A stretch of DNA of 62,813 bases from Candidatus Nomurabacteria bacterium (GTDB lineage Bacteria > Patescibacteriota > Minisyncoccia > Phycocordibacterales > UBA9973), in contig CALRHG010000001.1 of the NCBI GenBank assembly GCA_943359365.1, positions 1-62,813 on the forward strand. Direction: 5' to 3'. A model generated the notes under the pieces. That model had not been told where the DNA came from. It saw only the letters and a program-made list of their open reading frames with translations, and did not search any database. This document shows, piece by piece, positions 16,638 to 61,540 of this stretch (its first letter is position 1; every line of letters starts with the position of its first letter). Both the position numbers and the translations under genes were made by a program.

Positions 16638-16639
16638 CA

Positions 16640-16670
16640 AAAAATCCCTCTTTCAAGAGGGATTTTTTTA
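16640..16670 (+). terminator. intrinsic terminator after rpsI
   Basis: AAAAATCCCTCTT-TCAA-GAGGGATTTTTTT hairpin followed by a T-run. Confidence 0.75.
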
Positions 16671-16685
16671 TGTTAATATGAATTT

Positions 16686-17267
16686 ATGTCTGATGAAGAA
16701 ATTAAAAAAGAACCTGAAAATATAGCTTCGGAAGAGGAAGTTGTTGAATTCGAATTCAACGAAGACGGCGAGGAGGACTTGAAGAAGACTCTCAAGAAAT
16801 TGCGGGAGGATTTGAAGACGGCTAAAAAGGAGAAGGAAGAATATTTGACCGGCTGGCAGAAAGAGCGGGCGGATTTTGCTAATTACAAAAAAAATGAGGA
16901 GGACAGAAAGGCAATGGTTTCGGAAGCCATGCGCGAGCGGATACTTGCGAAATTTTTAGGAGTTATCGACAGTTTCAACATGGCTTTTGCCAACAAAGAG
17001 TCTTGGGAGAAAGTAGACGAAAATTGGCGGAAGGGTGTGGAATACATTTACGGGCAGATGAATACCATCTTCGAAGAATACGGAGTCAAAGGTGTGGGCG
17101 TTGTCGGCGAACGATTTGATCCGAATATTCACGAGCCGGTGGAAATGGTTGTGACAGACAAAAAAGAACTCGACCACACAGTCGCTAGCGTCATTCAAAA
17201 AGGCTACAAGCTCGGCGAGCGTATTCTGCGTCCGGCGAGGGTGAATGTTTACGAGCTTAAAGAGTAA
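16686..17267 (+). CDS. grpE: nucleotide exchange factor GrpE
   Basis: Acidic N-terminus, coiled-coil region (RERADFANYKK) and a C-terminal FDPNIHEPV...GYKLGERILRPARV. Confidence 0.9.
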   Translation: MSDEEIKKEPENIASEEEVVEFEFNEDGEEDLKKTLKKLREDLKTAKKEKEEYLTGWQKERADFANYKKNEEDRKAMVSEAMRERILAKFLGVIDSFNMAFANKESWEKVDENWRKGVEYIYGQMNTIFEEYGVKGVGVVGERFDPNIHEPVEMVVTDKKELDHTVASVIQKGYKLGERILRPARVNVYELKE

Positions 17268-17273
17268 AAGTCT

Positions 17274-17301
17274 ATTCTAATATTCTATAGAATTATAGAA
17301 T
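17274..17301 (+). promoter_or_regulatory. 28-bp four-hexamer palindrome (promoter/operator), copy 1
   Basis: ATTCTA-AT-ATTCTATAGAAT-TA-TAGAAT. The TAGAAT at 17288-17293 ends 6 nt before ATG 17300. Confidence 0.6.
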
Positions 17302-18976
17302 GAAAAAAGAAACCAAAAATTGTCAGAATTGCAAACAAGACTTCACAATCGAAGCTGAAGATTTCAATTTCTATGAAAAAATAAAAGTACCGGCTCCAAT
17401 CCTATGCTTTAAGTGCCGCCAGCATCGCCGATATGCTTGGCGAAACGAGCGGAATTTGTATCGGAGGAATTGCGATTTGTGCGGGAAGTCCACAGTAACT
17501 ATTTACTCTCCAAATAAGCCTTACAAAGTCTATTGTCACGATTGCTGGTGGGGCGACGGCTGGGATTTTACTTCTTACGGAAGAGATTTTGATTTTTCTA
17601 GACCGTTTTTTGAACAGTTCTCAGAGTTACAACATGAGGTTCCCCGCATGGCTCTATTAAATAAAAATAGCGTAAATTCCGAATACACAAACCACTCCGG
17701 AAATAATAAAAATGTTTATCTTTCTTTCTCCACTTTTGACGGGGAAAACATTATGTACAGTACTTGGATTATGGAAAATTCTCGGGATTGCATGGATTGC
17801 AGTTTTATTTATGAAAAAGGGGAACGTTTATATGAGGTTACTGACTCCCGAACATCCTATCAATGCCAGTACGGCATCTTTCTAAAAGATTGCTCTAATT
17901 GTTTATATTGCTACGATTGCCGCGGCTGCAACAACTGTTTTATGTCGACTAATTTGCGCAATAAAAGTTATGTTTTTAAAAATAAACAATATTCTCGAGA
18001 AGAATATCTAATTAAGATGAAAGAATACGAAATGTCTTCTTTTGCAACCCGGCAAGGCCTAGAAAAAGAATTTCAGGATATGATAGAGCAAAATGCTATC
18101 CATCGTTATGTCATAAGCGAGAGGAATGTGGATTCTCTTGGCAACCTTCTTTATGACTGCAAAAATGTAAAACAATCTTTTGAGGTTACAAGGGTAGAAG
18201 ACAGCAAGTACATATATGGAGCCATCGATGCTAAAAACTGTATGGATCTTTACCATGTGGGGCTAAATACTACTGAACTTTGCTATGAGCTGCAGGGTTG
18301 TACGAGAGTGAGCAACTGTCAATTTTGTCATCTATGTTATGACAACATGAATGTGCAATATTCCGACACCTGCCAAAACAGCCAAAATCTTTTCGGCTGT
18401 GTCTCGGTGAAAAAAGGCGAGTATCTTATTTTCAATAAAAAATATAGCAAAGCCGACTATGAATCTCTGAGGGAAAAAATTATCGAGCACATGAAAAAAA
18501 CAGGGGAGTATGGAGAATTTTTCCCTCCAGAAATCGCGCCGGTGTATTACAACGAGACGCAAGGCAATTTGTATATGCCCCTGACTAAAGAAGAAGTTTT
18601 AGCCAAAGGCTGGCATTGGGAGAATAATGTTCTGGGAACTTTTAGCAGAGAAACTATTTCTGCTGCAAAAATTCCGGACAAAATAGAAGATGTGCCGGAC
18701 TCTTATTTAAGCGAAATCTTTGCCTGCGCAAGCTGCTCCAAAAATTACAATATCACTAAGAATGAGCTATTGTTTTACAAAAAAGAAAATATTTCTCTTC
18801 CGCGAAAGTGCCCCAATTGTCGCTATAAACGCCGTTTCGACCTGCGACCAAAGAGGGAACTATGGCACAGAAAATGCATGAAGGCTGAATGCAAAAATGA
18901 ATTCGAAACTTGCTATCCGCCGGAATTCGCTGGGAAAGTTTACTGCGAGAAGTGTTATAACCAAGAAGTGTACTAA
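17300..18976 (+). CDS. Cys-rich multi-zinc-ribbon protein, family member 1
   Basis: 558-aa ORF. The N-terminal module (CQNCKQDF..FYEKIKVPAPILCFKCR..NCDLCGKS..VYCHDCWW) and the C-terminal module (CASCSKNY..LPRKCPNCR..VYCEKCYNQEVY) are related. The centre is rich in CxxC. Confidence 0.85.
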   Translation: MKKETKNCQNCKQDFTIEAEDFNFYEKIKVPAPILCFKCRQHRRYAWRNERNLYRRNCDLCGKSTVTIYSPNKPYKVYCHDCWWGDGWDFTSYGRDFDFSRPFFEQFSELQHEVPRMALLNKNSVNSEYTNHSGNNKNVYLSFSTFDGENIMYSTWIMENSRDCMDCSFIYEKGERLYEVTDSRTSYQCQYGIFLKDCSNCLYCYDCRGCNNCFMSTNLRNKSYVFKNKQYSREEYLIKMKEYEMSSFATRQGLEKEFQDMIEQNAIHRYVISERNVDSLGNLLYDCKNVKQSFEVTRVEDSKYIYGAIDAKNCMDLYHVGLNTTELCYELQGCTRVSNCQFCHLCYDNMNVQYSDTCQNSQNLFGCVSVKKGEYLIFNKKYSKADYESLREKIIEHMKKTGEYGEFFPPEIAPVYYNETQGNLYMPLTKEEVLAKGWHWENNVLGTFSRETISAAKIPDKIEDVPDSYLSEIFACASCSKNYNITKNELLFYKKENISLPRKCPNCRYKRRFDLRPKRELWHRKCMKAECKNEFETCYPPEFAGKVYCEKCYNQEVY

Positions 18977-18980
18977 GTCT

Positions 18981-19008
18981 ATTCTATAATTCTATAGAAT
19001 ATTAGAAT
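18981..19008 (+). promoter_or_regulatory. 28-bp four-hexamer palindrome, copy 2
   Basis: ATTCTA-TA-ATTCTATAGAAT-AT-TAGAAT. The TAGAAT at 19003-19008 ends 6 nt before ATG 19015. Confidence 0.6.
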
Positions 19009-19014
19009 GAAATT

Positions 19015-20706
19015 ATGAAAACCGAAATAAAAAACTGCCAAAATTGTAAAAAAGATTTCGTAATAGAACCGGACGATTTTGGATTTTACGAAAAAATCAA
19101 AGTACCTCCGCCGACTTGGTGCCCGCAATGCAGAATGCTGCGCCGGTTAAACTGGCAGGGGTACCGCATATTTTACAAAAGAAAATGTGATTTTAGCGGA
19201 GACTCAATTTTGAGTACATATCACCCGGATTCCCCGTACAAAGTCTACCGCCAGGATATATGGTGGAGCGACAAGTGGGATCCGAAAACTTACGGTAGGG
19301 ATATAGATTGGAACAAGCCTTTCTTAGAGCAATTTAGGGAATTAATGATCGAAATTCCGCACGCTTCTTTGGCTACGGAATACTCCACGATGCTTCGCAG
19401 TGACTATTGCAATGCGGCATCGGAATGCAAAGACTGTTATCTTTGTTTTCGCATTACCACAGGAGAGAATAGTGCTTATCTGAACACCGTTGTTGATGCC
19501 AAGCAATGCTTTGATTGTTCCTTTTTAAATCACTCAGAACTTTGTTATAGCTCCGTAAATATCAACAAATGCTACCAAGTATTTTTTTCACAAGACTGCA
19601 CCGAATGCCATGGTGTTTGGTTTTCGCGTGATTTAGTCGGGTGTTCGGATTGCGTAGGCTGTATCAATTTGCGAATGAAACAATACTGCATTTTCAATAA
19701 ACAGTACACAAAAGAAGAATATCAGAAAAAGTTGAAAGAATTTGATTTTGGCATACTGGCAAATGTGCAAGCTTTCAAGCTGCAGGTGGAAGAATTTATG
19801 AAGAAGGAGCCTAGAAAGCATTTTCATGGATTAAAAAATGTAAATGTTTCTGGAGAATATATTTCTAATTCCAAAAATGTACACGATTCGCACATGCTCG
19901 CAAACGGGCTAGATTTGCGTTACTGCCAATTTTTGAAAAACGGGCCTGCGTCTTCTTCGTATGATTGGACGCTGTTTGGTGATAATTCCGAGTTGATGTA
20001 CGAATGCGGCTGGTGCGGACTCGATTCGAGTAGCGTTAAATTCAGCGCGTGGAATTATTTTAATCTCAATATTGAATACTGTTTCGGTTGCCATCATTCT
20101 AGGAATTCGTTCGGCTGTACCAACCTGATAAAATCCGAATATTGTATTTTAAACAAACAATACACCAAAGAGGAATACGAGAAGCTAATTCCAAAAATAA
20201 AGCAGCACATGGTAGATATGCCTTTCAAAGACAACAAGGGAAGAATATATAAATATGGGGAAATGCTGCCGGCAGAATTTTCGCCTTGGTGTTACAACGA
20301 ATCGACAGCTTATGAATGGTTTCCGAAGACTAAAGAGGAAGCGGTTCTTCAGGGTTTGAAATGGCGCGAACAGGATTCTCATGAATACAAAGAGGCGACT
20401 ATGGAAATACCTATCCATATCAAAGATGTCAAAGACGATATTTTAAATGCGATTTTAAGATGCTCAGGTTGCGTAAAAAATTACCAAATTATACAAAAGG
20501 AGCTAGACTTTTTGCGGCAAATGAATTTGCCGATTCCGCGACAGTGCCCTTTGTGCCGAGACCGTGCGCGCCTGAAATTATTGAACCCTATTGCTGTTTA
20601 TGACAGAAAGTGTGCAAAATGTGATAAAGAAATTAAAACTTCGTATGCTCCAGACCGACCAGAAATCGTTTATTGTGAAAAGTGTTATCAACAAGAGGTT
20701 TATTGA
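19015..20706 (+). CDS. Cys-rich multi-zinc-ribbon protein, family member 2
   Basis: 563-aa paralog that ends ..IVYCEKCYQQEVY. The second N-terminal zinc knuckle is degenerate (KCDFSGDS, VYRQDIWW). Confidence 0.85.
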   Translation: MKTEIKNCQNCKKDFVIEPDDFGFYEKIKVPPPTWCPQCRMLRRLNWQGYRIFYKRKCDFSGDSILSTYHPDSPYKVYRQDIWWSDKWDPKTYGRDIDWNKPFLEQFRELMIEIPHASLATEYSTMLRSDYCNAASECKDCYLCFRITTGENSAYLNTVVDAKQCFDCSFLNHSELCYSSVNINKCYQVFFSQDCTECHGVWFSRDLVGCSDCVGCINLRMKQYCIFNKQYTKEEYQKKLKEFDFGILANVQAFKLQVEEFMKKEPRKHFHGLKNVNVSGEYISNSKNVHDSHMLANGLDLRYCQFLKNGPASSSYDWTLFGDNSELMYECGWCGLDSSSVKFSAWNYFNLNIEYCFGCHHSRNSFGCTNLIKSEYCILNKQYTKEEYEKLIPKIKQHMVDMPFKDNKGRIYKYGEMLPAEFSPWCYNESTAYEWFPKTKEEAVLQGLKWREQDSHEYKEATMEIPIHIKDVKDDILNAILRCSGCVKNYQIIQKELDFLRQMNLPIPRQCPLCRDRARLKLLNPIAVYDRKCAKCDKEIKTSYAPDRPEIVYCEKCYQQEVY

Positions 20707-20712
20707 TTGGCT

Positions 20713-20743
20713 AATTCGTACGAATGGGTAAATAGAGAAATTA
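20713..20743. repeat. conserved ~30-nt element containing the palindrome ATTCGTACGAAT, copy A
   Basis: TAATTCGTACGAATGGGTAAATAGAGAAATTA recurs almost unchanged at 51641-51671. Confidence 0.7.
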
Positions 20744-20775
20744 CCTAACTCTAACGGTCGTAAAAATTAGGTAAT

Positions 20776-21324
20776 TTACTTTCCAAAAGTCTCAAATAAA
20801 AACTTTTTCGTTTCTTCGTCTACGAATTCGGTGACTATGATCATCATCTCGGTGGTGAGACCGAGATCTTTTTTTATATTCGTGAACAGATGTTCAAAAG
20901 GGAAAGGGGAGATCCACGCGGAATTTTTCAGGCAGACGAAACCGGCTTTCTTTAGTAGGTAGCGTAGGCTCTCGCGCTCGCTTTTTCTGTTCTCCGGCAG
21001 ATCGAGCAAAATAATTCTCCAAAATCCGTCCCAAGTGGTGTTTACGAGTGTTGTATCGCTATCTAATTTTAAACTATGTACTTTTTTTCTGCCTTCTTTG
21101 GTCAGGCGGGCGTATTCATTTTGCGGAGAGGAGACATGCTCTATCAATCCTGCTTCTTTGAGGCCTTTTAGAGAGCGAGTTACGGCATATGAATTTTTGC
21201 TCCCCTCCTTGTGGAGGAGGGGGCTGGGGGTGGTGATTTGTTCTTTAATTTCCGGCAAAGAAACAGCACTTTTTTCGCCTAAAATCTTTAAAATTTTGTT
21301 CGAATAGTCTTTCCTGCTTGACAT
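20776..21324 (-). CDS. winged-helix transcriptional regulator, PaaX-like
   Basis: N-terminal wHTH (AVTRSLKGLKEAGLIEH), then WDGFWRIILLDLPENRKSERESLRYLLKKAGFVCLKNSAWISP, which resembles the PaaX middle domain. Confidence 0.55.
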   Translation of the reverse strand: MSSRKDYSNKILKILGEKSAVSLPEIKEQITTPSPLLHKEGSKNSYAVTRSLKGLKEAGLIEHVSSPQNEYARLTKEGRKKVHSLKLDSDTTLVNTTWDGFWRIILLDLPENRKSERESLRYLLKKAGFVCLKNSAWISPFPFEHLFTNIKKDLGLTTEMMIIVTEFVDEETKKFLFETFGK

Positions 21325-21411
21325 GTTTATAGGCTATCATATATACTCTAATTATACAAGTTTTTAGTGGTCACGAAATATAAGTAAATTATTAAATTAA
21401 CCAATAAACAT

Positions 21412-23331
21412 ATGGCAAAAATTATAGGTATAGACTTGGGTACGACGAATTCGGCGGTAGCTATCATTGAAGGAGGGGTTCCGAAAATTGTGGAAAATAT
21501 CGAGGGCAACCGGACCACTCCTTCGGTGGTGGCGACGGCGAAAAATGGCGACCGTATTGTCGGGCTTTTGGCTCGCAGACAAGCTATTACTAATCCGGAA
21601 AATACTATTGCGGAAATTAAAAGATTCATGGGTCATCGTTTTGATGATCCGGAAGTGCAGAAAGATCGCGGAACAGCGGCATTTAAAATCGAACAGGGCG
21701 ATGGCGGCGGAGTGAAAGTAAAAATGCTGGATAAATTTTATCGACCAGAAGAAGTTTCGGCGATGATTTTGCAGAAAATAAAAGCGGATGTGGAAGCAAA
21801 GCTTGGAGAAAAAATTACTGAGGCTGTCATCACCGTGCCGGCGTACTTCAACGACTCGCAGCGTAAAGCAACCAAGGACGCGGGAGCTATCGCGGGGCTG
21901 GATGTAAAGCGAATCATCAACGAGCCGACAGCAGCTGCGCTTGCCTACGGTTTTGATAAAAAGAAAAATGAAAAAATAGTGGTCTATGACTTCGGCGGGG
22001 GAACTTTCGACGTGTCTGTGCTGGAAATCGGCAGTGATGTTATCGAAGTGAAGTCTATAGATGGAGACAGCCACTTAGGTGGAGGCGACATAGACCGAAT
22101 AATCGTGAAGTGGATTGCAGAGCAATACAAAAAAGAGTCAGGCATAGATGTGACCAAAGACCCGCTCGCGCATCAGAGGCTTCGCGAGGCGGCAGAAAAA
22201 GCCAAGCATGAACTTTCGACGACGATGGAGGCAGAAATAAATATTCCGTTTATCACTTCCGATGCCGGCGGTCCGAAGCATTTGCTCATGAAAATGTCCC
22301 GCGCTACTTTGGAATCTTTGACTAAAGAATTAATTGATCGCTCTATTGAAATTACCAAAAGAGCTCTCGCGGCTTCGCCTTTCAAGATGAACGAAATAAA
22401 TGAAATCATCATGGTCGGCGGGCAGACCAGAATGCCGAGGATTGTGCAGGCAGTAAAGGAACTTTTTGGCAAGGAGCCGAACATGTCCATCAATCCGGAC
22501 GAAGTGGTGGCGCTCGGCGCGGCGGTGCAGGCCGGCGTGCTGGCTGGAGATGTGCGTGATGTTCTCTTGCTCGATGTTATTCCGCTTTCCTTGGGTATTG
22601 AAACTTTGGGAGGCGTTGCGACAAAATTGGTTGAAAGAAATACAACAATTCCTTCCAGTAAGTCGCAGACATTTTCTACCGCGGCTGATAATCAGACTTC
22701 AGTGGAAATTCATATTGTGCAAGGCGAGCGCCCGATGGCTTCGGACAACCGTTCCCTCGGACGATTTATCTTGGATGGCGTTCCGCCAGCTCCTCGCGGT
22801 ATGCCGCAAATTGAAGTTTCCTTCGATGTGGACGCGAACGGCATCTTGAATGTCGCGGCGAAAGATAAGGCTTCCGGCAAATCGCAGTCGATTAAAATAG
22901 AAGCAAGCTCCGGCCTGAAAGACGAAGACATCAAAAAAATGCAGCAGGACGCGGAGCTACATGCGACGGAAGACAAAAAGAAAAAAGAAGGTATAGATAT
23001 TAGAAATACCGCCGAAATGATCATTTACACCGCAGAGAAAGCATTGAAGGATAACGAAGCAAAAATTCCGGCGGAGTTAAAAGAAAGTGTTAATTTGAAA
23101 ATTGCTGCGCTTCGGGGCGCGAAAGATTTGCCAGCCGGTGCGGGTGGCAATGACATAGAAACAATCAAAAAAGCGACGGAAGAGCTTTCTGCTGAAATGT
23201 CTAAAATAGGTGAAGCGATGGCGAAAGCCGGAGCCACGCCCCAATCCCCAAAACCACCGGAAGAACAGCCAGCGGAAGTAAAAGACGCGGAATTCAAAGA
23301 GGGAGATAAGCCAAAGGACGAAACAAAATAA
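21412..23331 (+). CDS. dnaK: molecular chaperone DnaK (Hsp70)
   Basis: [28 protein letters not shown] and a C-terminal substrate-binding domain. Confidence 0.97.
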
Positions 23332-23355
23332 ATTATTAATACAAATAAAATTATT

Positions 23356-23622
23356 ATGATTGACCCAACGAAAGTAGACATGAACCAGCTGCCAAAGAAG
23401 TTTATTGACGGAGCTATTGGCGGCTATGGCAAAGAAATTTTTTCTTTTGCTCTAACCTCAGGAAACAATTTGGATTCTTTTGCGACTACTCCTCAAGTAA
23501 TGAAAAGCATCTCAACTTGGCTAAATGTACAAGTGCAAAATTACGAGAAGCAATTTGGCGCGATTGACATGACCCCGCCATCAATACAGAGCCCTCTGCA
23601 GAGATCAGATTTGGGAAAATAA
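23356..23622 (+). CDS. small conserved hypothetical protein (possibly DUF3467-like)
   Basis: 88-aa ORF. The pattern ..TTPQVMKSISTWLNVQVQNYEKQFGAI.. resembles DUF3467 as I remember it. Confidence 0.4.
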   Translation: MIDPTKVDMNQLPKKFIDGAIGGYGKEIFSFALTSGNNLDSFATTPQVMKSISTWLNVQVQNYEKQFGAIDMTPPSIQSPLQRSDLGK

Positions 23623-23664
23623 GATTATTATCCCAAAACTCCATTTTCTTGTTATAATACCCAA

Positions 23665-23955
23665 ATGAACGAACAAGACAAAAAAGAAATACACGTAGAT
23701 ATATTGAAGCATGTCGAGGGGTTATCGCAGAAAATAAACAACATGATGGCGCCGAGAACGCAGGCGGTTTTGGCTAGGTATCCCATTACCTTTGGGGTTT
23801 TGATACTTTTCGGCGTTATATCTTTGCACGAAGGCTTGAAAGGGCTCATGAAAGAGTTTGGATTTCTAGATATCAATCCTTGGTATCCATTTATAATCGG
23901 GCTAGTGATTTTGATTATTACCGGCACTTTGTATAAAAAATTGGACGATAAATAG
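23665..23955 (+). CDS. small membrane protein, unknown function
   Basis: 96 aa with two hydrophobic helices (ITFGVLILFGVISL, FIIGLVILIITGTL). Confidence 0.5.
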   Translation: MNEQDKKEIHVDILKHVEGLSQKINNMMAPRTQAVLARYPITFGVLILFGVISLHEGLKGLMKEFGFLDINPWYPFIIGLVILIITGTLYKKLDDK

Positions 23956-24031
23956 ATTTATCTTCAAAGGGCTAGTGGACTATTCTTGAGGGGCTTTTAG
24001 TTTCGGCTATTTTATTGTAAAATAGTGTTGT

Positions 24032-26179
24032 ATGGAATTACCCGAAATACCTTTCAATAAAGACCTGACATATATTGGGATTACGACATATCGGGACAAG
24101 AATCAGCTTTTTGGCATCAAGCGCAAAGACAGGCGCCAGCATGTTTACATGCTCGGAAAGTCCGGTACCGGTAAATCCGTGCTGATGTTTAATATGATTA
24201 TCCAGAACATTCGAAACGGCGACGGAGTCTGCATGGTGGACCCGCACGGAGAAAATGTCGAAGCGGTTCTCTCGGCTATTCCACCGGAACGCATCAAGGA
24301 CGTCGTTTATTTCAACCCCGCTGACGCCGAGCACCATATTGGATTCAATGTTCTCGAATTGATCGATCCTCAGTACAAGCATTTGGTGGCGTCCGGCCTC
24401 ATGGGAATTTTCACGAAAATTTGGGCGAACGCTTGGAGCGCCCGCATGGAATATATTTTGAACAATGCAATTCTCGCCCTTCTGGACACTCCGGGCACCA
24501 CACTCCTCGGCATTCCGCGCATGCTTGTGGACAAAGATTATCGCCAGAAAATAATTTCCAATTTGAAAGACCCTGTCATCAAAGCTTTCTGGGTGCACGA
24601 GTATGAAGCTTGGCAGGATAAATTCCGAAACGAAGCCATCGCGCCGATTCAAAACAAAGTCGGGCAGTTTCTCTCTACAAGCATAATTCGAAATGTCGTC
24701 GGCCAGTCGAAGAGCACGATAAATATTTTCGACATGATGAACGACGGCAAGATTTTCTTGGTAAACGTTTCCAAGGGGCGCATCGGCGAAGACAACTCTG
24801 GACTGCTCGGAGGCATGATCATCACTAAAATTCAGCTGGCGGCCATGGAGCGTGTGCGTATTCCGGAAGAACAGCGCCGAGACTTTTATCTTTTCGTCGA
24901 CGAATTCCAAAATTTCGTGACGGACGCTTTTGCTGGCATTCTTTCGGAGGCTCGTAAATACAGATTGAACCTGACGGTGGCGCACCAATATACAGCCCAG
25001 CTGGTGGTGGACAAAAGTTCGGCGGTGCGCGACGCAGTTTTCGGCAACGTGGGCACGACGATAGTTTTCAGAGTTGGCGCCGACGATGCGGAATTTTTGG
25101 AAAGTGAATTCGAGCCGGAATTTACTCCGCTAGACATATTAAACCTGCCAAACTACAAGATTTATATAAAACTAATGATAGACGGCGTGACCTCCCGCCC
25201 TTTTTCCTGTAAAACTTTGCCTCAGCTGGTAAAGTCCGGCGATAAAAAAGTTGAAGATGAAGTTATCCGCTCTTCACGCGCGCTTTATTGCCGGCCGAGG
25301 GAAGTGGTAGAAAGGGAAATCAACGACTGGAGCGGAATGTCTCTCGGTGATGACACCTCGAGCGGATCCGGAGCCCTGGAGAAATTTCCCACAGTATGCT
25401 CGCTCTGTAAAAAAGAAACGACGGTGCCGTTCAAGCCGGAGCCGGGGCGCCCAGTGTACTGTAAAGAATGCATTGCGAAAATAAAATCCGGCGAAGTAAA
25501 AGTTGAAAAGGGAAGAGAAGACCAGATCAAGTACGATGAGTCTACTTTTTTCAAACCATTGGCTGATCTGGGCATAGAATTCGAACGAAAAGATCAAGGC
25601 AAAGATGCGAAAAGCGAAACAGCAAATCGCTTTCCGGAAAGAGTAAATAAGCCTAGTATCGTCGGAGCTATTAAAAAAGTCTTCAAGTCCGCTAAACCAG
25701 CAGGTTCGCTTGGTGGTTTGGTCGTCAAGCCCGCTCCCGCGCCGATTATAGCCAAAGCAAATATCGCTACCCCTCCACCAATTCCGCCAAAAGTAGTTAT
25801 CCCTAAAAAGCCCCCAGCAAAAGACAATATAGCCTTAAGAGAAATTTTAAATGAAACACTGAAAGCCGAGGTAGAAAAGCCTATCCCGGTGCCGGAACCA
25901 AAAAAAGAAATTGTGCCGCCTGTACCCCCAGTAAAAGCGCCGGAGCCGATTTCACTTGATGCTCTCAAAAATAAAATCAAAGAACCTACGCAATCAAAAG
26001 ACCGCGCTGCGAGCCATGAGGACATGAATAAATTGAAGAATTTGATTGCGGAGAAAATCACCACTCCAGCTAAAGCCACTCCTCCTCCAAAAGGAGGGGA
26101 AGAGACTCCTGCGCCAACCCCAGTTCCTAAAAAGCCAAAAGAAGTTCCGGAAGACGTCTTAAGAAAAATTTTAGAGTAA
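24032..26179 (+). CDS. T4CP/TraD-VirD4-like P-loop ATPase with a C-terminal zinc ribbon and a Pro/Lys-rich tail
   Basis: Walker A LGKSGTGKS, Walker B FYLFVDEFQNF, ARKYRLNLTVAHQY. Zinc ribbon CSLCKKETTVPFKPEPGRPVYCKEC (25397-25471). No N-terminal TM segment. Confidence 0.75.
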   Translation: MELPEIPFNKDLTYIGITTYRDKNQLFGIKRKDRRQHVYMLGKSGTGKSVLMFNMIIQNIRNGDGVCMVDPHGENVEAVLSAIPPERIKDVVYFNPADAEHHIGFNVLELIDPQYKHLVASGLMGIFTKIWANAWSARMEYILNNAILALLDTPGTTLLGIPRMLVDKDYRQKIISNLKDPVIKAFWVHEYEAWQDKFRNEAIAPIQNKVGQFLSTSIIRNVVGQSKSTINIFDMMNDGKIFLVNVSKGRIGEDNSGLLGGMIITKIQLAAMERVRIPEEQRRDFYLFVDEFQNFVTDAFAGILSEARKYRLNLTVAHQYTAQLVVDKSSAVRDAVFGNVGTTIVFRVGADDAEFLESEFEPEFTPLDILNLPNYKIYIKLMIDGVTSRPFSCKTLPQLVKSGDKKVEDEVIRSSRALYCRPREVVEREINDWSGMSLGDDTSSGSGALEKFPTVCSLCKKETTVPFKPEPGRPVYCKECIAKIKSGEVKVEKGREDQIKYDESTFFKPLADLGIEFERKDQGKDAKSETANRFPERVNKPSIVGAIKKVFKSAKPAGSLGGLVVKPAPAPIIAKANIATPPPIPPKVVIPKKPPAKDNIALREILNETLKAEVEKPIPVPEPKKEIVPPVPPVKAPEPISLDALKNKIKEPTQSKDRAASHEDMNKLKNLIAEKITTPAKATPPPKGGEETPAPTPVPKKPKEVPEDVLRKILE

Positions 26180-26184
26180 AATCT

Positions 26185-26212
26185 ATTCTAAAATTCTATA
26201 GAATTATAGAAT
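26185..26212 (+). promoter_or_regulatory. 28-bp four-hexamer palindrome, copy 3
   Basis: ATTCTA-AA-ATTCTATAGAAT-TA-TAGAAT. The TAGAAT at 26199-26204 ends 6 nt before ATG 26211. Confidence 0.6.
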
Positions 26213-27998
26213 GAAAAAAGAAACAAAAACAAAAAACTTTTCGTGGCTGGATACGATAAAGGCCTTTTGGTATTTTTTAGATAAAGATAAGCCGAAATTT
26301 ATTTTCGCATTCTTTATTCTTTTGGTAATTTTCTTTTATGATTTTATACCAGTATTTGTTTTAGGAAAAATTTTAGATTTCTTTAATTCGTATAAAGACG
26401 GACAGTCGCTTTCAATTTTTTATTCTTATGTCATTTTTCTAAGCGTTACATACATAATAGCTTCGCTCATTCGATTAAAAAGCAAAAATATTTTAAATAG
26501 AACAGGATTTCATACTCGCACCAGAGCCAGAGTCTGGGGATTTGAGCGGTTGACTGAATTTTCTTTGGAATGGCACAACAAAGAAAATACCGGCAACAAG
26601 CTTCAGAGGATTTTTACCGGCGCGGATGGGGTACGAAATCTGCTCAAGTTGTTCAGCAAGGATTTATTAAAAACCTTTGTCAACATTGCCGGCGCAATCA
26701 TATTTTTTTTATTCACAGATATAAAATTTGTCGCGCTTATTTTGATTTACGGCGCACTCTTTTTCTATATAGAATTTACTTTTAGCAAGAAAGTTTTTGC
26801 TTTCAGCAATGAATTTAATGAGATGAATCAAAAGGCCAGCGGCGCATATATGGAAGGGGCAAGTAACATGCTTTCTATAAAAGCTCTTGGCGGGGAGGAG
26901 GCGATAGCGGGGCGTGTTCTAGATAAAGAAACTCTTTCGCGCGATATTGCAATAAAAAAGACAAATGCTACTAATTTAAAATGGCGCTTTTTTCAGATTT
27001 TAAACGGCGTCAGTCTAGGAATTTTCCTTCTTTTACTTGGTTCCTCAGTAATTTCTCACACAATAACTCTCGGAATGATGCTTGTACTGTATAGTTACTA
27101 TAATGATAAATTCCGAAAGTCACTGGAAGAGATTACTGATTTGCATTCTGATATGATAGATTTTCGGTCAGATATTAGCCAGATGATGCCCATATTCAAA
27201 GAAACTGAATTCATAAAAACAGGCAACGAAAGTTTCCCGAAAGACTGGAACAAGATTGAAATAAAAAATGCGGTGATGGATTATGGCTCAGGGCAAAAAG
27301 GCCTCAATAATTTTAATTTAATACTAAACAGAAATACTAAGACAGGTATTGCCGGAATATCCGGTTCGGGCAAATCCACGCTCGCAAAAATTATCTTGGG
27401 ATTGTATGCGCTCAAGGAAGGAGAATTTAAAATAGGGAAAGAAAATAATATGAAGAATTATTATTCAATTTCTCATAATGAAACGCTAGGCAATATTACA
27501 GTCGTTCTGCAAGAGACGGAGCTTTTCAATCTTTCTTTGCGGGAAAATATTACGATGATGCGTCCCGAAAATAAAGACCTTTTAGATATGGCAGTAAAAA
27601 TTTCTGAACTAGATAAAGTAATTAATAAACTTCCCGAAGGCCTTGACGCTCTGATAGGCGAAAAAGGATATATGCTTTCCGGCGGCGAACGCCAGCGCCT
27701 TGGGATTGCCCGCGCGATTTACAAAAATGCGCCGATTATTATTTTAGATGAAGCGACTTCCTCGCTTGATTCGGAGACTGAAGGCAAAATAATGGAGAAG
27801 CTCCTGGGCGAATACGGCAAAGATAAAACTTTCTTAATTATCGCCCACCGCTTGGGAACTTTGAAGTATACTGACAATATCGCCGTGATGGAGAGAGGAC
27901 AAGCGGTCGAAGAGGGAAGCTACGAAACGCTGATGAACGATAAAAAATCAGTTTTTTATAGATTAAATAAAGAAAAGAAAAATGAATCAAGAATGTAA
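26211..27998 (+). CDS. ABC exporter, fused permease/ATPase
   Basis: Six-helix TMD, Walker A GISGSGKST, signature LSGGERQRLGIARA, Walker B IIILDEATSSLD. Confidence 0.9.
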   Translation: MKKETKTKNFSWLDTIKAFWYFLDKDKPKFIFAFFILLVIFFYDFIPVFVLGKILDFFNSYKDGQSLSIFYSYVIFLSVTYIIASLIRLKSKNILNRTGFHTRTRARVWGFERLTEFSLEWHNKENTGNKLQRIFTGADGVRNLLKLFSKDLLKTFVNIAGAIIFFLFTDIKFVALILIYGALFFYIEFTFSKKVFAFSNEFNEMNQKASGAYMEGASNMLSIKALGGEEAIAGRVLDKETLSRDIAIKKTNATNLKWRFFQILNGVSLGIFLLLLGSSVISHTITLGMMLVLYSYYNDKFRKSLEEITDLHSDMIDFRSDISQMMPIFKETEFIKTGNESFPKDWNKIEIKNAVMDYGSGQKGLNNFNLILNRNTKTGIAGISGSGKSTLAKIILGLYALKEGEFKIGKENNMKNYYSISHNETLGNITVVLQETELFNLSLRENITMMRPENKDLLDMAVKISELDKVINKLPEGLDALIGEKGYMLSGGERQRLGIARAIYKNAPIIILDEATSSLDSETEGKIMEKLLGEYGKDKTFLIIAHRLGTLKYTDNIAVMERGQAVEEGSYETLMNDKKSVFYRLNKEKKNESRM

Positions 27999-29643
27999 AA
28001 AATGCAAACAGGGTTTCACTTTAGATAAAGACGATCTAGGTTTTTACGAAAAGATGAAAGTTCCGCCGCCCAAAGTCTGCCCGGATTGTCGCTTTAAAAT
28101 GCGCGCGATGTTTCGCAATGAAACGACGCTTTATTCCGGGCGCAAATGCGCTCTTTGTGAAAAGAGTATTGTTTCCATGTTCAACCCCAAAGCCCCTTAC
28201 ACTGTTTATTGTTACGATTGTTTTTATTCTGAAAAATGGGATCCGAAAGAATATGCTATGGATTATGACGAAAACAGACCTTTTTTAGAACAATTTGGCG
28301 AGTTATTAAAAAAGGTTCCTAAGATCACATTGTATCTCAACGCGGCGGACGGAAAAAATTTAAATAGTGAATATGTAAATATGGCTGGCGGTCTGAAAAA
28401 TTGCTATCTGGTTTTTAATACAAGCCCATCGGAAGATTTGTTATATTCGAGAGGCGTCAGGCACGGAAAAGATGCTTCGGATATATATTTCGGTACCCAT
28501 CTTGAGCGGTGCTACGAATGCGTAAATGTGCAACAGTCCGCAGGGATACTTTTTGGCAAGAATGTCACCGGCTCAGTGGATTCAGCTTTTCTTGTGAATT
28601 GCCGGGGCGTAATAAATTGTTTCGGTTGCGTTAACTTAAACACCAAGTCGTATTATTTTTTAAATCAGCCGATACCGCCGGACGAGTACAAGAAAAAAGT
28701 GAACGAAATTCTGGGGTCTTACGAAAAAATTCAGGAATTCAAAAAAGAATTTGAAAAATTTGTTCTTAATTTTCCGATGCGGGAGAACAACAACCTCAAG
28801 ACTGTCAACTCAACCGGGGATTATCTGTTTGAATGCAAGAATGTCAAGGATTCTTTTGAAGTTACAGGAGCGGAAGATTGCCGTTATCTTTTTTCTTCAA
28901 AAGAGGCCAAAGATTCTATTGGCACCATAGGTTATGGCACAAAGTCGGAGCGAATGCTCGAAGTAGTGGCTACCGGCCTTTCGAGTAATATTATAGGCAC
29001 ATACGGTGCGGAAAATTGCAGCGATATTTTGTACGGATTTTTTATCAAAAATTGCAAGAGTTGCATTGCTTGCGACGGGCTAAAGAATGCGCAATATTAT
29101 ATTTTTAACAAACAATATACAAAAGAAGAGTACGAAAGACTGCGCGCAAAAATTATCGAAGAGTTAAAAGAAAAAGACTTATACGGATTGATCATCCCGG
29201 TAGAGCTTGCCCCTTTTGCTTACAATGAAACTATTGCAGAGGACAGGTTTCCACTTGCGAAAGAAGAAGCGCTAGCACAAGGTTTTCGCTGGGAAGATGA
29301 TATACAAAAGACGGAAGGAAAGGAGACAATGACACCGGAAAATATTCCGGATAATATAAAAGATATTCAGGATTCGATTACCAGCGAAATTTTAAGGTGT
29401 ATAGATTGCAATAGGAATTATAAAATAATCGCTCAGGAACTTTTATTTTACCGCAAAATGAATATTCCAATACCGCGAAAATGTTTCTATTGCCGTCACC
29501 AAGACCGTATCCTCCGCCGAGGGCCGTATAAATTCTGGAATCGCAATTGCGCGAAGTGCAAAAAGGAGATTATAACCAATTATTCCCCAGATAGAATGGA
29601 GATCGTGTATTGTGAGAAATGTTATCAGCAGGAGGTTTATTAA
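27982..29643 (+). CDS. Cys-rich multi-zinc-ribbon protein, family member 3
   Basis: 553-aa paralog that ends ..IVYCEKCYQQEVY. It overlaps the end of the ABC gene by 17 nt. Confidence 0.85.
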   Translation: MNQECKKCKQGFTLDKDDLGFYEKMKVPPPKVCPDCRFKMRAMFRNETTLYSGRKCALCEKSIVSMFNPKAPYTVYCYDCFYSEKWDPKEYAMDYDENRPFLEQFGELLKKVPKITLYLNAADGKNLNSEYVNMAGGLKNCYLVFNTSPSEDLLYSRGVRHGKDASDIYFGTHLERCYECVNVQQSAGILFGKNVTGSVDSAFLVNCRGVINCFGCVNLNTKSYYFLNQPIPPDEYKKKVNEILGSYEKIQEFKKEFEKFVLNFPMRENNNLKTVNSTGDYLFECKNVKDSFEVTGAEDCRYLFSSKEAKDSIGTIGYGTKSERMLEVVATGLSSNIIGTYGAENCSDILYGFFIKNCKSCIACDGLKNAQYYIFNKQYTKEEYERLRAKIIEELKEKDLYGLIIPVELAPFAYNETIAEDRFPLAKEEALAQGFRWEDDIQKTEGKETMTPENIPDNIKDIQDSITSEILRCIDCNRNYKIIAQELLFYRKMNIPIPRKCFYCRHQDRILRRGPYKFWNRNCAKCKKEIITNYSPDRMEIVYCEKCYQQEVY

Positions 29644-29668
29644 CCCCAGAGGCAAGACCTATGGGGTA

Positions 29669-30364
29669 CTAAATCCCATGCACTGCTCTATAAGTTCCCA
29701 CGATCGCTGCAGTTTCGCCGCGAAGAGTAAGTGCACCTAGGGAGGCTACAGTGAAGCTGGAATCTTTCGCTAATTTTATTTCATTCTCTGTGAACCCGCC
29801 TTCCGGCCCGACAAAAATGCTGATTTCTTTAGCATTTTTGTCGGGCGCATATTCTTTTCCACCCAAGTGAAAAATAATTTTTTCGCCTTCTGCACCAAAA
29901 ATCGCATCTTTGAAATCCAAAATAGGGGAGAGTGTGGGCACAATGCTTCGCCCGCATTGCTCGCTTGCTTCTAGAATTATTTTTTCCAAGCGAGGAATAT
30001 TTAATCCGGTTTTTATCGTGCGTTCGGTAATTACCGGAATAATTTTAGATACTCCGCATTCTACAGCTTTCTGCACTGCCAGTTCAAAATTTTCCTTTTT
30101 CAGAATCGCTAAATAAAGATTGACTATTTTTCCAGCAAGGGTAGTCCTTGCTCGAAAGTTTTTAACTACTGTGCCTGTAATTTTTTCTGAAGATAAAAAT
30201 TCCAAAGTTACTTCTGCTTCTTGACCCTTCCCGTCTGAAAGTATAATTTTATCACCAATTTCTAGCCTCAAAACAGCCCGTATTTGCTTGATTGTTTTTG
30301 GGTCTATGATTTCTATCTCATTTTTCGACAAGTCGTATTTTCCAATAAATCTATTTAAGCGCAT
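29669..30364 (-). CDS. rsmE: 16S rRNA (uracil1498-N3)-methyltransferase RsmE
   Basis: MRLNRF start, PUA-like N-terminus, and IFVGPEGGFTENEI with LGALTLRGETAAI motifs. Confidence 0.85.
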   Translation of the reverse strand: MRLNRFIGKYDLSKNEIEIIDPKTIKQIRAVLRLEIGDKIILSDGKGQEAEVTLEFLSSEKITGTVVKNFRARTTLAGKIVNLYLAILKKENFELAVQKAVECGVSKIIPVITERTIKTGLNIPRLEKIILEASEQCGRSIVPTLSPILDFKDAIFGAEGEKIIFHLGGKEYAPDKNAKEISIFVGPEGGFTENEIKLAKDSSFTVASLGALTLRGETAAIVGTYRAVHGI

Positions 30365-30402
30365 GCTTTTATGATATACTTTATATACTAATTTTCAAGC
30401 AT

Positions 30403-31896
30403 ATGCCCAAGCCGAATCGAGTGCAAATAATCAAATACGGGCCTCCACCTCCGGAACTCCCGGTTTTTGGAAAGGTTAAACCGGAGGAAGTTTCTTTTAT
30501 CGGGCGGACGAATTACGTTGCTTCTCTCGAAGAAAAAAAATTCATTTTCGGCATCAAGCGCGTAGACCGCAGGCGCCACCTGTATATCATCGGAAAGTCC
30601 GGAGTCGGCAAGACAAAGCTTCTAGAATTGATGCTCCGACAAGATATTTCATACAAACACGGACTCTGTCTAATTGATCCGCACGGCGATGTCATCGAAG
30701 CGATGCTGGAATACATTCCAAAAGAGCGCATCGAAGATGTCTGTATTATTGACCCTACCGATCTTGATTTTCCGGCATCTTTCAATCCGCTCTCCAACGT
30801 CGACCCATTATTTAAATTCCAACTAACTCAGGGTCTCATCGAAGTTTTTCAAAAACAATTCGGAGCGAACTGGACGCCCCGCCTCGAACACGTCTTTCGT
30901 TTTACTTGTCTAGCGCTTCTCGACTATCCGCATGCGACCATGCGCGGCATGATCTCGATGCTGACAGACAGAAATTACAGGCAGAAAGTAGTGGAATACA
31001 TTACGGACGACATGGTGAAAAGATTCTTTGCAATCGAATTCGCTGACTGGTCGGAGAAATTCGACACCGACGCCATCATTCCGCTCGTCAACAAACTCGG
31101 GCAATTTCTCTCTGACCCGCTCTTAAGAAATATTTTCGGTCAGAAGCAAAACAAGATTGATATTAGCAAGCTCATGAACGAACAGAAAATTATTCTGATT
31201 AATCTTTCAAAGGGTCGCCTCGGCGAAGAAAATTCTTCATTCTTGGGGTCCATATTTCTCACGAAGATCAAGCAGGCGGGCATGGAGCGCGCCGCCATGC
31301 CGGAGTCAGCGCGAAAGGATTTCTATATATATGTCGACGAGTTCCAAAACGTAGTGACGCAGACTTTCGAAAACATTTTGTCGGAGGCGCGAAAATACGG
31401 TCTTAACCTCACCATGGCGCACCAATATGTCGGGCAGATTATTACCAAAGTGCATCAAGCGGTGCTCGGTAACTGCGGTAGTATTATTACCTTCCGTATC
31501 GGCGGTGAGGATGCGGTGAAATTAAAGCCGGAATTCGCTCCACTCTTCGATGTGAAAGATATGATTAACCTCGCGGTCACCGAATTTTATATCAAGATGA
31601 CGATTGACGGCGAATCTTACGATCCGTTTTCCGCCGAGACGCTCCGCGTGCTTCCGCCGAATCATCCTTCGTACCGACAAGAAATTATCGACGCTTCGCA
31701 CCGAAAATATTCCATACCAAAAGGCGACGCGCAGAAACTTATTCTCGAAGAAGAAGCGACGATTATCCGCAGTTCAGAAGAAAAAGCTATTATTGAAGGG
31801 AAGGGAAAGGGAAAAACCGGAGACGAAACAACTCCGACGCCCGAGGGGTCGGAGTCCCGACCAAAAGCGTCGGGAGAAGCTGAGCCGATGATCTAA
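30403..31896 (+). CDS. T4CP/TraD-VirD4-like P-loop ATPase, paralog 2
   Basis: Walker A IGKSGVGKT, Walker B FYIYVDEFQNV, ARKYGLNLTMAHQY. Collinear with 24032-26179 and has no TM segment. Confidence 0.75.
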   Translation: MPKPNRVQIIKYGPPPPELPVFGKVKPEEVSFIGRTNYVASLEEKKFIFGIKRVDRRRHLYIIGKSGVGKTKLLELMLRQDISYKHGLCLIDPHGDVIEAMLEYIPKERIEDVCIIDPTDLDFPASFNPLSNVDPLFKFQLTQGLIEVFQKQFGANWTPRLEHVFRFTCLALLDYPHATMRGMISMLTDRNYRQKVVEYITDDMVKRFFAIEFADWSEKFDTDAIIPLVNKLGQFLSDPLLRNIFGQKQNKIDISKLMNEQKIILINLSKGRLGEENSSFLGSIFLTKIKQAGMERAAMPESARKDFYIYVDEFQNVVTQTFENILSEARKYGLNLTMAHQYVGQIITKVHQAVLGNCGSIITFRIGGEDAVKLKPEFAPLFDVKDMINLAVTEFYIKMTIDGESYDPFSAETLRVLPPNHPSYRQEIIDASHRKYSIPKGDAQKLILEEEATIIRSSEEKAIIEGKGKGKTGDETTPTPEGSESRPKASGEAEPMI

Positions 31897-31936
31897 ATTT
31901 TTTGATTTTTTTTAAAAAATTTGATAATATAAAAAT

Positions 31937-33031
31937 ATGAGCAAAGATTACTACGAAACATTAGGAGTAAATAAAGGCGCGTCAAAAGACGAGATAAAGA
32001 AGGCTTTTTACAAGTTGGCGCACAAGTATCACCCTGACAAAAAAGAAGGCGATGAGAAGAAATTCAAGCAGGTAAACGAGGCCTATCAGGTGCTTTCAGA
32101 CGACTCTAAACGCTCAAAATATGACCAATTTGGGTCGGGTTTTGAAAACATGGGGGCTGGCGGAGGCTACGGTCAGCAGCAAGGAGGCTTTGGCGGATTC
32201 GACTTTTCTGGCTTTCAGAATGGCGGCGGTGCGGAGTTTGATTTTGGAAACTTAAATGATATTTTCAGTGATTTCTTCGGCGGCGGGGGAGGAGGCAGAA
32301 GGGAAGCACGCCGAGGCCGAGACATTTCGACAGAGATTTCCATTTCTTTCTCAGATTCCATTTTCGGTATAAATAGAAAAATTTTAATTACTAAAACTTC
32401 TAGCTGTATGACTTGCCATGGCTCCGGCGCGAAAGCGGGAACAAAAATGGAGACTTGCAAGACCTGCAACGGGCAGGGCAAAATCCGCGAATCCAAAAGA
32501 ACAATTTTTGGAAATATTGCGAGCACAAAAGTCTGCGAACACTGCCTCGGCGCGGGCGAAGTGCCGAAAGAAATTTGCGACACATGCAAAGGCAAGGGCG
32601 TAATGCGCCGAGAGGAAGAAGTCTCCATAGTCATTCCAGCTGGTATACGCGACGGCGAAATGATCCGCATGACAGGCTTTGGTGAAGCGGTGTCCAAGGG
32701 CACTACGGGGGACTTATATATAAAAATAAATGTGGCTCCGCATCCGGTTTTCAAGCGCGATGGGCATGACCTGGTGATGAATTTGAATTTGAAACTTTCT
32801 GATGCACTTCTCGGCACGGAATATCCGATAGAGACTCTTGACGGACAAATTGAAGTGACGATTCCGGAAGGCGTGGGCATAAATGAAATTCTCCGTGTAC
32901 GCGGCAAGGGCGTTCCAGTTTCTAAATCTAAACGCGGCGATCTTCTGATCAAACTCAACATCAAACTTCCATCAAAACTTTCTCGAAAATCACGCGAAAT
33001 AATAGAAGAACTCAAAAAAGAGGGGATATAA
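31937..33031 (+). CDS. dnaJ: molecular chaperone DnaJ
   Basis: J-domain with HPD (KYHPDKK), a G/F-rich region and four CxxCxGxG repeats. Confidence 0.95.
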
Positions 33032-51565: not shown

Positions 51566-51640
51566 GTAAAGTAACTGCCGAGGTGTGGATAACCCCGAAC
51601 CAGAGCAAGCTCGGTACGGGGCAGGCTTTTTCTATTGTCT

Positions 51641-51671
51641 TATTCGTACGAATGGGTAAATAGCGAAATTA
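51641..51671. repeat. conserved ~30-nt element containing the palindrome ATTCGTACGAAT, copy B
   Basis: TTATTCGTACGAATGGGTAAATAGCGAAATTA matches 20713-20743. Confidence 0.7.
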
Positions 51672-61512: not shown

Positions 61513-61540
61513 ATTCTACAATTCTATAGAATTATAGAAT
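61513..61540 (+). promoter_or_regulatory. 28-bp four-hexamer palindrome, copy 4
   Basis: ATTCTA-CA-ATTCTATAGAAT-TA-TAGAAT. The TAGAAT at 61535-61540 ends 8 nt before ATG 61549. Confidence 0.6.

Follow-up and report, generated by a model that had tools for sequence, protein, structure and literature searches.

The window analysed here, a stretch of 62,813 nt, is contig 1 of a 664-kb, 46-contig genome of a Candidatus Nomurabacteria bacterium (estimated completeness 90.6%). It contains an ATP-binding cassette (ABC) exporter gene that overlaps a gene for a cysteine-rich zinc-finger protein, one of a family whose members in the window are numbered 1 to 4 (M1 to M4). We consider it probable that the exporter gene and member 3 form a two-gene unit behind a shared, inherited palindrome, which is a putative operator and leaderless promoter. 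The exporter is of an ordinary type and stands in an unusual, still unexplained neighbourhood. The features of the proposed unit and of the gene upstream of it are given below; elsewhere, L-numbers denote loci, G-numbers genomes and C-numbers contigs.

24032..26179, plus strand: T4CP1, a VirD4/TraD-like ATPase (Pfam TrwB_AAD_bind, T4SS-DNA_transf and zf_Tbcl_2)
26185..26212: type-A palindrome at the ABC gene, ATTCTAAAATTCTATAGAATTATAGAAT; it ends on the first two letters, A and T, of the ABC start codon
26199..26204, plus strand: -10-like hexamer TAGAAT, ending 6 nt before the ATG; predicted leaderless mRNA from A26211
26211..27998, plus strand: ABC half-transporter, 595 amino acids (Pfam PF00664 and PF00005)
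27982..27998, plus strand: overlap of the ABC stop and the member 3 start, 17 nt, ATGAATCAAGAATGTAA
27982..29643, plus strand: family member 3, 553 amino acids (zf_Tbcl_2 match and family alignment)

The exporter gene and its overlap with member 3

The first-pass annotation had described a 17-nt overlap between the exporter gene and member 3, and the two plus-strand open reading frames (ORFs) at 26211-27998 and 27982-29643 confirm it. The start at 27982 retains the first CxxC pair of the family (MNQECKKCKQGF), and the junction ATGAATCAAGnATGTAA is conserved at L002 and L057. Overlaps of -17, -11 or -4 nt with other paralogues of the family occur at L018, L025, L007, L023, L005 and L020. The same annotation had concluded from the overlap that the two genes share one transcript and are translationally coupled. 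This is plausible, given the overlap itself, a genome that does not use Shine-Dalgarno (SD) motifs, and the lack of a convincing internal promoter or terminator: a scan of positions 23900-30500 for sigma-70 promoters and terminators returned counts at the level of shuffled sequence and no credible internal promoter for member 3. Member 3 would then be translated by termination-reinitiation. On the other side, overlaps are common in this tightly packed genome, where 14% of same-strand neighbour pairs overlap and the gap is 10 nt or less in 39%. Because overlapping or abutting genes are usual here, the 17-nt overlap by itself has little weight.

By its sequence the exporter is an intact half-transporter of the MsbA/ABCB type, which presumably works as a homodimer. 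Pfam and NCBIfam searches recovered an ABC_membrane transmembrane (TM) domain (PF00664, residues 31-297, E = 9e-21) and a nucleotide-binding domain (NBD; PF00005, residues 365-517, E = 1.3e-26) and no other domain. The NBD has the complete set of motifs: Walker A GISGSGKS (382), Q-loop VVLQ (431), LSGGE (489), Walker B IIILDE (509) and H-loop IAHR (544). Together, this TM domain and the full motif set place the protein with exporters of the type IV fold (ABCB/MsbA-like). Hydrophobic segments lie at residues 33-51, 69-87, ~153-179 and ~263-289, and a crude hydropathy scan separates four to six of the six helices of this domain type. The protein contains no cysteine, and only about 30 residues precede the first TM segment. 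Its closest sequence relatives in the PDB are P-glycoprotein/ABCB and MsbA. The best NCBIfam match is MsbA_lipidA TIGR02203 (245 bits against a cut-off of 602), with PRK11176 at 204 against 867; the other curated matches (a glucan exporter, NHLP and bacteriocin exporters, HlyB) likewise fall far under their cut-offs. Two further exporters of the same type, 29-32% identical, are encoded on contig 20.

Like the halves of MsbA, Sav1866 and P-glycoprotein, the exporter fuses one PF00664 TM domain to one PF00005 NBD, with intact catalytic motifs in about 590 amino acids. Unlike those exporters, it scores far below every equivalog cut-off, has no cysteine, was found in a single Nomurabacteria-type genus, and has its gene flanked by those for a soluble VirD4-like ATPase and a zinc-finger solenoid protein. 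The TM and NBD parts also align at about 200-215 bits to the exporters of the PCAT1, HlyB and NHLP type, with which it shares a position next to possible cargo genes. Those exporters carry an N-terminal C39 or C39-like domain, whereas Pfam and NCBIfam profile searches found neither in this protein, and its alignments to the peptidase-containing models begin at model positions 144 (TIGR01193) and 189 (TIGR03796). The exporter also differs from them in that no leader-peptide genes or membrane-fusion protein were recognised nearby, the neighbours being zinc proteins of 550 amino acids rather than small peptides. No gene for an HlyD-type membrane-fusion protein was recognised among the window neighbours (T4CP1, member 3, rsmE and T4CP2), nor was there an HlyD-type Pfam match among the called genes of the six metagenome contigs described below; the 24 genome loci were classified solely by BLAST against the window genes.

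Member 3 is a soluble protein with 28 cysteines, in which a pair of zinc ribbons lies at each end and the solenoid-like core is duplicated; a hydropathy scan found no TM segment in it. It matches zf_Tbcl_2 (PF23477 / TIGR04272, zinc ribbons of the form CxxC-x17-CxxC) at 24 bits, where the curated cut-off is 27 (E = 3.2e-5), and its Cys pairs are invariant over 28 family sequences. In an AlphaFold2 model (predicted template modelling score, pTM, 0.83; predicted local distance difference test, pLDDT, 78.7) the prediction is good for the zinc-ribbon ends and poorer for the two solenoid-like cores. A PDB fold search with this model gave no match at E<=0.001, only insignificant matches to left-handed beta-helices. 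Our literature search found nothing published on this exporter or this zinc-finger family.

The palindrome and the origin of the shared 5' sequence

The type-A palindrome is a 28-bp arrangement of four hexamers, ATTCTA-nn-ATTCTA followed directly by TAGAAT-nn-TAGAAT. At the exporter gene it adjoins the T4CP1 stop, with 5 nt between them. Three further copies are found in the window:

17274..17301: 5' of member 1, behind grpE
18981..19008: 5' of member 2, whose true start codon lies 7 nt beyond the last hexamer
61513..61540: 5' of member 4 (start 61549)

Searching the window with the 20-nt core and at most three mismatches yields eight strand-matches (four sites), where 0.02 are expected. The copy at the exporter gene is identical to the M1 copy at 27 of 28 positions, and to the M4 copy at 27 of 28 as well. 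The M1 28-mer recurs without change in at least seven other genomes. Weaker copies exist elsewhere in the genome, one on contig 24 and two around an ArsR-type gene on contig 15, and another ArsR-type gene, a paralogue on contig 8, has a second class of palindrome, ATTCCnACATTCTCAAGAATGTnGGAAT, around it.

The placement of the palindrome suggests how it may work. Genome-wide, a -10-like hexamer ends 5-9 nt before the ATG in 24% of ORFs against a background of 4.3%; SD motifs (GGAG/GAGG) upstream of starts are not enriched (5.1% vs 6.5% background). The -10-like placement, the lack of SD enrichment and A-rich codons 2-7 fit an SD-independent, often leaderless initiation. At the exporter gene, the inner TAGAAT of the palindrome would serve as the -10 box and the mRNA would begin at the ATG, without a leader. 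Read-through from T4CP1 is possible because only 5 nt separate its stop from the palindrome and the scan of 23900-30500 found no terminator between the two genes. T4CP1 has a TGtAAAAT box of its own 7 nt 5' of its ATG.

The palindrome would also be the operator of a small ArsR-type repressor, overlapping the promoter. The candidate gene, C15:4438-4725 (95 amino acids; Pfam HTH_5), carries one type-A-like site where it starts and another within its final codons. The same layout of gene and palindromes is seen in G003 and G454, the G454 site lying 13 nt before the gene. Among 36 species of the same genus, each represented by a genome, strict type-A sites and a homologue of this repressor (ArsR_A) of at least 52% identity occur together in five genomes; four have only the sites, one has only the gene and 26 have neither. 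This co-occurrence supports the pairing of repressor and operator circumstantially, and binding is predicted. In the ArsR/SmtB pairs SmtB-smtA and CzrA-czrAB, imperfect 12-2-12 inverted-repeat operators overlap the controlled promoters. The present pair resembles them in that the regulator is a small winged-helix protein of ArsR type whose own gene is flanked by look-alike palindromes, that regulator and site tend to co-occur, and that the palindrome spans the predicted -10 box and start site of the target units. It differs in having a site of four hexamers and 28 bp, a regulator without Cys or canonical ligands, and targets that read as leaderless, with the start codon inside the putative operator. 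If the operator reading is true, a start codon within the operator would be a compact way for a repressor to control a leaderless promoter; regulation in this phylum has hardly been studied.

We also considered a metal-homeostasis system made up of an SmtB-like sensor, a Cys-rich sink and an exporter. This candidate was rejected: the regulator lacks the usual ligands, and the family is a conserved, structured protein of 550 amino acids. G223, which belongs to another family of the same order, shows no match to the zinc-finger family. It nevertheless contains ATTCTAGTATTCTATAGAATACTAGAAT in 11 identical copies, along with three ArsR_A-like genes, and two of the copies flank one of these genes. 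The regulator-palindrome module can therefore occur without the zinc-finger family.

The first-pass annotation had noted that the 52/53 nt at 26173-26224 and at 17261-17313 (around the start of member 1) are nearly the same. Global alignment bears this out, with one 1-nt indel and one substitution; base 26225 differs (ACA vs ACC), and the similarity is at background level more than ~16 nt downstream and more than ~12 nt upstream of the palindrome. The explanation it had offered, a recent recombination or gene conversion by which the exporter gene acquired the promoter, the palindrome and the opening five codons of member 1, we regard as very unlikely. It has in its favour that, apart from the indel, 51 of 52 positions are identical, with 15 of the 16 nt past the palindrome matching. 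Moreover, the operator class at this junction changed between the window and L002, and the palindromes before family genes vary among genomes, so that exchange of 5' cassettes does happen on some time scale. The relatives of the exporter gene decide against a recent copy. In L055, a metagenomic contig whose exporter is 77% identical, the junction reads gaataaaatctATTCTAAAATTCTATAGAATATTTAGAATGAAAACAGAAAC (in fuller reading gaaTAAaatctATTCTAAAATTCTATAGAATATTTAGAATGAAAACAGAAACTAAAACAAAAAAC): the palindrome, the junction, the offset from the ATPase stop and the fused ATG are the same, and both private variants of the window's exporter copy are present (AAAATCT without the G of M1; left spacer AA, not AT). 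Since L055 shares the palindrome together with these variants, the exporter copy was inherited from an ancestor older than that divergence. On this comparison it is old and vertically inherited. The core of the palindrome is moreover common to four units of the window, and within it the exporter copy is equally close to the copies of M1 and M4. The identity of the M1 28-mer across several species implies that selection alone keeps copies near-identical, and purifying selection suffices to account for the likeness.

The flanks said to have been copied have their own histories. The last codon and stop upstream, GAG TAA, are the conserved C-terminus of T4CP1, which ends in VPEDVLRKILE and stop; this end is kept at L003, L004, L012, L017, L021, L051 and L057, where the exporter starts immediately after, with no palindrome. 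The exporter's opening, MKKETK, had likewise been ascribed to copying from member 1. In relatives without the palindrome the exporter starts MNSETKNFSW, MKKEPKNFPW, MSQATKTETKNLSW or MKTETKANNFTW, and a 44%-identical outgroup exporter from another family has PENKRLPW at the same place. As palindrome-free orthologues already start M-x-x-E-T-K-N(-F-S-W) and the outgroup has ENKRLPW, the K-E-T-K codons are the exporter's own. The same ENKRLPW, together with the presence of the motif in orthologues that stand alone ('solo' copies), led us to reject a further candidate, in which the orthogroup arose with an N-terminus captured from a family gene. The A content of codons 2-7 is 46.7% genome-wide, against 30.5% internally. 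N-termini of this kind are common in general: an unrelated ORF on contig 9 begins MKKETKTK, and rpsI begins MDKETK. The 52-nt likeness to M1 thus has three sources: the shared palindrome with short conserved flanks (TCT before, GAAA after), pre-existing sequence (the ILE-stop end of the ATPase and the M-x-x-E-T-K-N start of the exporter) and the genome-wide A-rich bias of codons 2-7. With an ordinary ABCB/MsbA-type pump and a cassette that is a shared, inherited element, the claim of a copied cassette loses most of its surprise.

Other elements occupy this junction in some relatives. At L054 it holds a GC-rich hairpin repeat. The family genes in the genome of L002 carry yet another 5' palindrome, ATATCAGCTATAGCGTATAT, which stands right at the ATG of family genes in some relatives (L037-L047 of G001) and makes up the last codons and stop of the exporter gene in L003 and L004. 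The variants of L002, L003/L004 and L054 indicate that 5' elements have been exchanged over evolutionary time; the exporter copy of the window is not a recent product of such exchange.

A degenerate type-A palindrome (26/28) lies at C24:9976-10003 within a minus-strand ORF resembling NifS/cysteine desulfurase, ~300 nt from the 3' end of that ORF and upstream of a 406-amino-acid gene to which no function was assigned. A third class, the 28-bp palindrome ATTCTGnnATTCTTGAGAATATGAGAAT, is found inside the ileS coding sequence (C2:19676-19703), and at the same place in a related genome (G001:C5:33632).

Occurrence of the exporter beside the zinc-finger family

We collected 30 exporter loci, 24 in species-representative genomes (62-83% identity) and six on metagenome contigs, and searched for the exporter in the 36 same-genus species and in samples of the order and the class. 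Searches at the class and order levels returned only paralogues of 30-44% identity, and the genus-level search revealed real patchiness: the exporter is present in two of the 36 species, the family in 34 of 36 (1-23 matches each). Outside the genus, the family was found in one of 24 genomes. The exporter is thus restricted to the genus with the expanded family, and rare there.

Where it occurs, the exporter tends to keep the same company. It lies among family and/or T4CP genes at 17 of the 24 genome loci and on all six metagenome contigs, while seven of the 24 have neither kind of gene nearby. At ten of the 24, the next gene downstream is a family gene in the same orientation, at a distance of -17 to +11 nt; directly upstream are a family gene (6/24) or T4CP1 (9/24), T4CP1 being the usual upstream neighbour in relatives. 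Most exporter loci belong to the island T4CP1-(family)n-T4CP2 within the dnaK-dnaJ locus, where the exporter gene typically stands directly between T4CP1 and a family member. The downstream paralogue varies by locus (member 3-, 2- or 1-like), as does the gene order, so the association survived rearrangements. In a tree of the exporters, the solo copies form about three groups nested among the clustered ones; their flanks hold only housekeeping genes (polA, uvrB, clpB-like) and give no hint of a substrate. No exact type-A palindrome (up to five substitutions) is present at any of the 24 orthologue loci searched, and a degenerate search of these loci found only another class in L002 and one site 3' of the last family gene in L018. 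The conserved adjacency that the first-pass annotation had proposed as a check is therefore upheld at 23 of 30 loci, and tempered by the presence of the exporter in just two of the 36 species. The link between exporter and family is real but partial, and looks looser than had been assumed.

G451 illustrates the alternative state. It has the order dnaK-T4CP1-(member 3-like, 74%)-rsmE-T4CP2, without the exporter, and the T4CP1 stop is followed 3 nt later by the start of the member 3-like gene. Between T4CP1 and member 3 the exporter thus represents an insertion/deletion polymorphism, and the family is independent of it. Its dispensability (two of 36 species, with an orthologue of member 3 in place without it) limits the roles open to the family and argues against the family as obligatory cargo of the pump. 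The exporter would rather be an optional add-on alongside the T4CP and zinc-finger proteins, neither an obligatory partner nor their secretion channel.

The same patchiness could mean that the exporter has no functional tie to its neighbours at all, being a generic lipid- or drug-type ABC pump that lies in a variable, recombination-prone island and gained its operator by chance. The exporter is missing from 34 of the 36 same-genus genomes, most of which retain the family and the ATPases; seven orthologue loci sit among housekeeping genes, the unrelated rsmE is in the island too, overlaps are common in the genome, and the pump has no special domains. Yet chance adjacency would amount to a few per cent, with ~10 family genes among several hundred, and 23 of 30 loci adjoin family or T4CP genes, in several orders, with different paralogues and mostly on the same strand. 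The orthogroup is found only in the genus in which the family has expanded, its best matches elsewhere in the order and class samples being 30-44% identical, and the exporter of this genome has the palindrome of the family, a putative operator. We consider an unrelated pump unlikely, if still a serious contender.

Several observations weigh against the proposed two-gene unit and its operator. Tight packing is normal in this genome and the island also houses rsmE, so that adjacency by itself says little for a common function. The start site, the co-transcription of exporter and member 3 and the reinitiation are all predictions from sequence. At L002, the nearest relative (exporter 83% identical), the junction has another palindrome class, ATTCTGATATTCTCAAGAATATGAGAAT, with 10 extra nt before the exporter start, and no homologue of ArsR_A was seen in the genome of L002; the operator must therefore have been replaced somewhere in the lineage, possibly by recombination. 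Four same-genus genomes have perfect type-A sites and no close ArsR_A homologue was seen in them. Finally, the ArsR-type protein, by our reading of its sequence, is without Cys and without the canonical alpha3/alpha5 metal ligands.

The number of family matches swings from 0 to 23 per genome within one genus whose genomes are 0.4-0.9 Mb, a very large range for small genomes. On four of the metagenome contigs (L054-L057) the exporter is accompanied by a DUF5674 gene (70-118 amino acids) and a gene of ~100 amino acids, a possible accessory pair; in three contigs the two genes separate the exporter from the next family gene, and in the fourth they come behind that family gene.

The ATPases and the dnaK-dnaJ locus

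As assigned with Pfam and NCBIfam, the locus begins rpsI - grpE - [palindrome] member 1 - [palindrome] member 2 - PaaX-like gene (minus strand) - dnaK, and continues with two small ORFs - T4CP1 - [palindrome] ABC - member 3 - rsmE (minus strand) - T4CP2 - dnaJ. Downstream of member 3 the features are:

29643..29667: GC-rich short hairpin where the stops of member 3 and rsmE converge, candidate bidirectional terminator
29669..30364, minus strand: rsmE, 16S rRNA methyltransferase, a housekeeping gene within the island (Pfam Methyltrans_RNA and PUA_4)
30403..31896, plus strand: T4CP2, second soluble VirD4-like ATPase, a core gene at the end of the island (NCBIfam)
31937-33031: dnaJ, directly after T4CP2

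T4CP1 is a soluble protein with a Pro/Lys-rich tail and a zinc ribbon that matches zf_Tbcl_2 at 47.7 bits, over the cut-off of 27; the end VLRKILE and stop is kept without the palindrome in relatives including L003, L012, L051 and L057. T4CP2 is present in all 36 same-genus genomes, 85-93% identical in most. A hydropathy scan revealed no hydrophobic segment in T4CP1 and no membrane anchor in either ATPase, and homologues of T4CP-like ATPases occur in 60 of the 61 genomes of an order-level sample. A survey of 2,918 Patescibacteria genomes counted 5,713 VirD4-type homologues, only 148 of them near virB4, and raised exaptation as a possibility (PMC12102498). T4CP1 and T4CP2 are such orphans, and were found in nearly all genomes sampled from the order. 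They differ in lacking a membrane anchor, in their position inside the dnaK-dnaJ locus, and in bracketing zinc-finger family genes and, in a minority of genomes, an ABC exporter.

This setting raises the question of whether the zinc-finger proteins themselves leave the cell through the exporter, possibly delivered to it by the T4CP-like ATPases, much as a coupling protein serves an array of effectors. Like effector arrays, the family is large, variable in copy number (1-23 per genome) and adjoins VirD4-like ATPases; its extreme C-terminus (...VYCEKCYQQEVY) is strongly conserved, and T4CP1 has a zinc ribbon of the same type. Set against this, the family proteins are soluble and contain 28-35 Cys and four zinc ribbons, but neither a signal peptide nor repeats of the RTX type. 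The pump is without a C39 or C39-like domain, no membrane-fusion partner was recognised among the neighbouring genes, and most genomes rich in family copies have no pump. The T4CP-like ATPases, for their part, belong to the core genes of an order in which the family is mostly missing. We judge secretion of the family by this pump to be very unlikely.

It is conceivable, if improbable, that the VirD4-like ATPases, the zinc-ribbon solenoid proteins and, where present, the ABC half-transporter would constitute one undescribed machine in the dnaK-dnaJ locus of Nomurabacteria-type bacteria. The ABC dimer would then be an optional membrane conduit or anchor, and the set would be switched by interchangeable palindromic operators doubling as leaderless promoters. 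For the two-gene unit of exporter and member 3, the remaining use of the analysis is as context for an undescribed system: the family fills 1-23 gene slots in genomes of ~0.7 Mb and sits in a chaperone locus between two very conserved orphan VirD4-like ATPases, where a genus-specific exporter recurs. A PADLOC scan gave generic ATPase matches only (mad3, mad8, HerA) and recognised no defence system.

The genes grpE, dnaK and dnaJ are separated from each other by family genes and the two T4CP-like ATPases (window 16221-33031). The rsmE gene retains its classical position near dnaJ, and G451 has the same order minus the exporter. The hairpin after member 3 may be a bidirectional terminator: the fold of 29625-29690 has -23.2 kcal/mol (z = -2.4), is without a U-tract and was not called by the terminator scan, so the evidence for this role is weak.

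About ten family genes are spread over the genome (contigs including C16, C5, C4, C46 and C27), with the type-A palindrome at only the four in the window; the remaining ones have plain -10-like boxes or lie directly behind another gene. The end of the window (62683-62813) overlaps the start of contig 27 (C27:1-576), onto which member 4 (61549-) runs and where a GC-rich hairpin repeat follows it. A fifth family member, C27:1527-3254, has its own TGcTAGAAT box 6 nt 5' of the ATG, without the palindrome. Several family genes have behind them a further conserved element that contains the palindrome ATTCGTACGAAT, at 20699-20743 and 51627-51671 in the window, on contig 27 after member 5, and at L023:7433.

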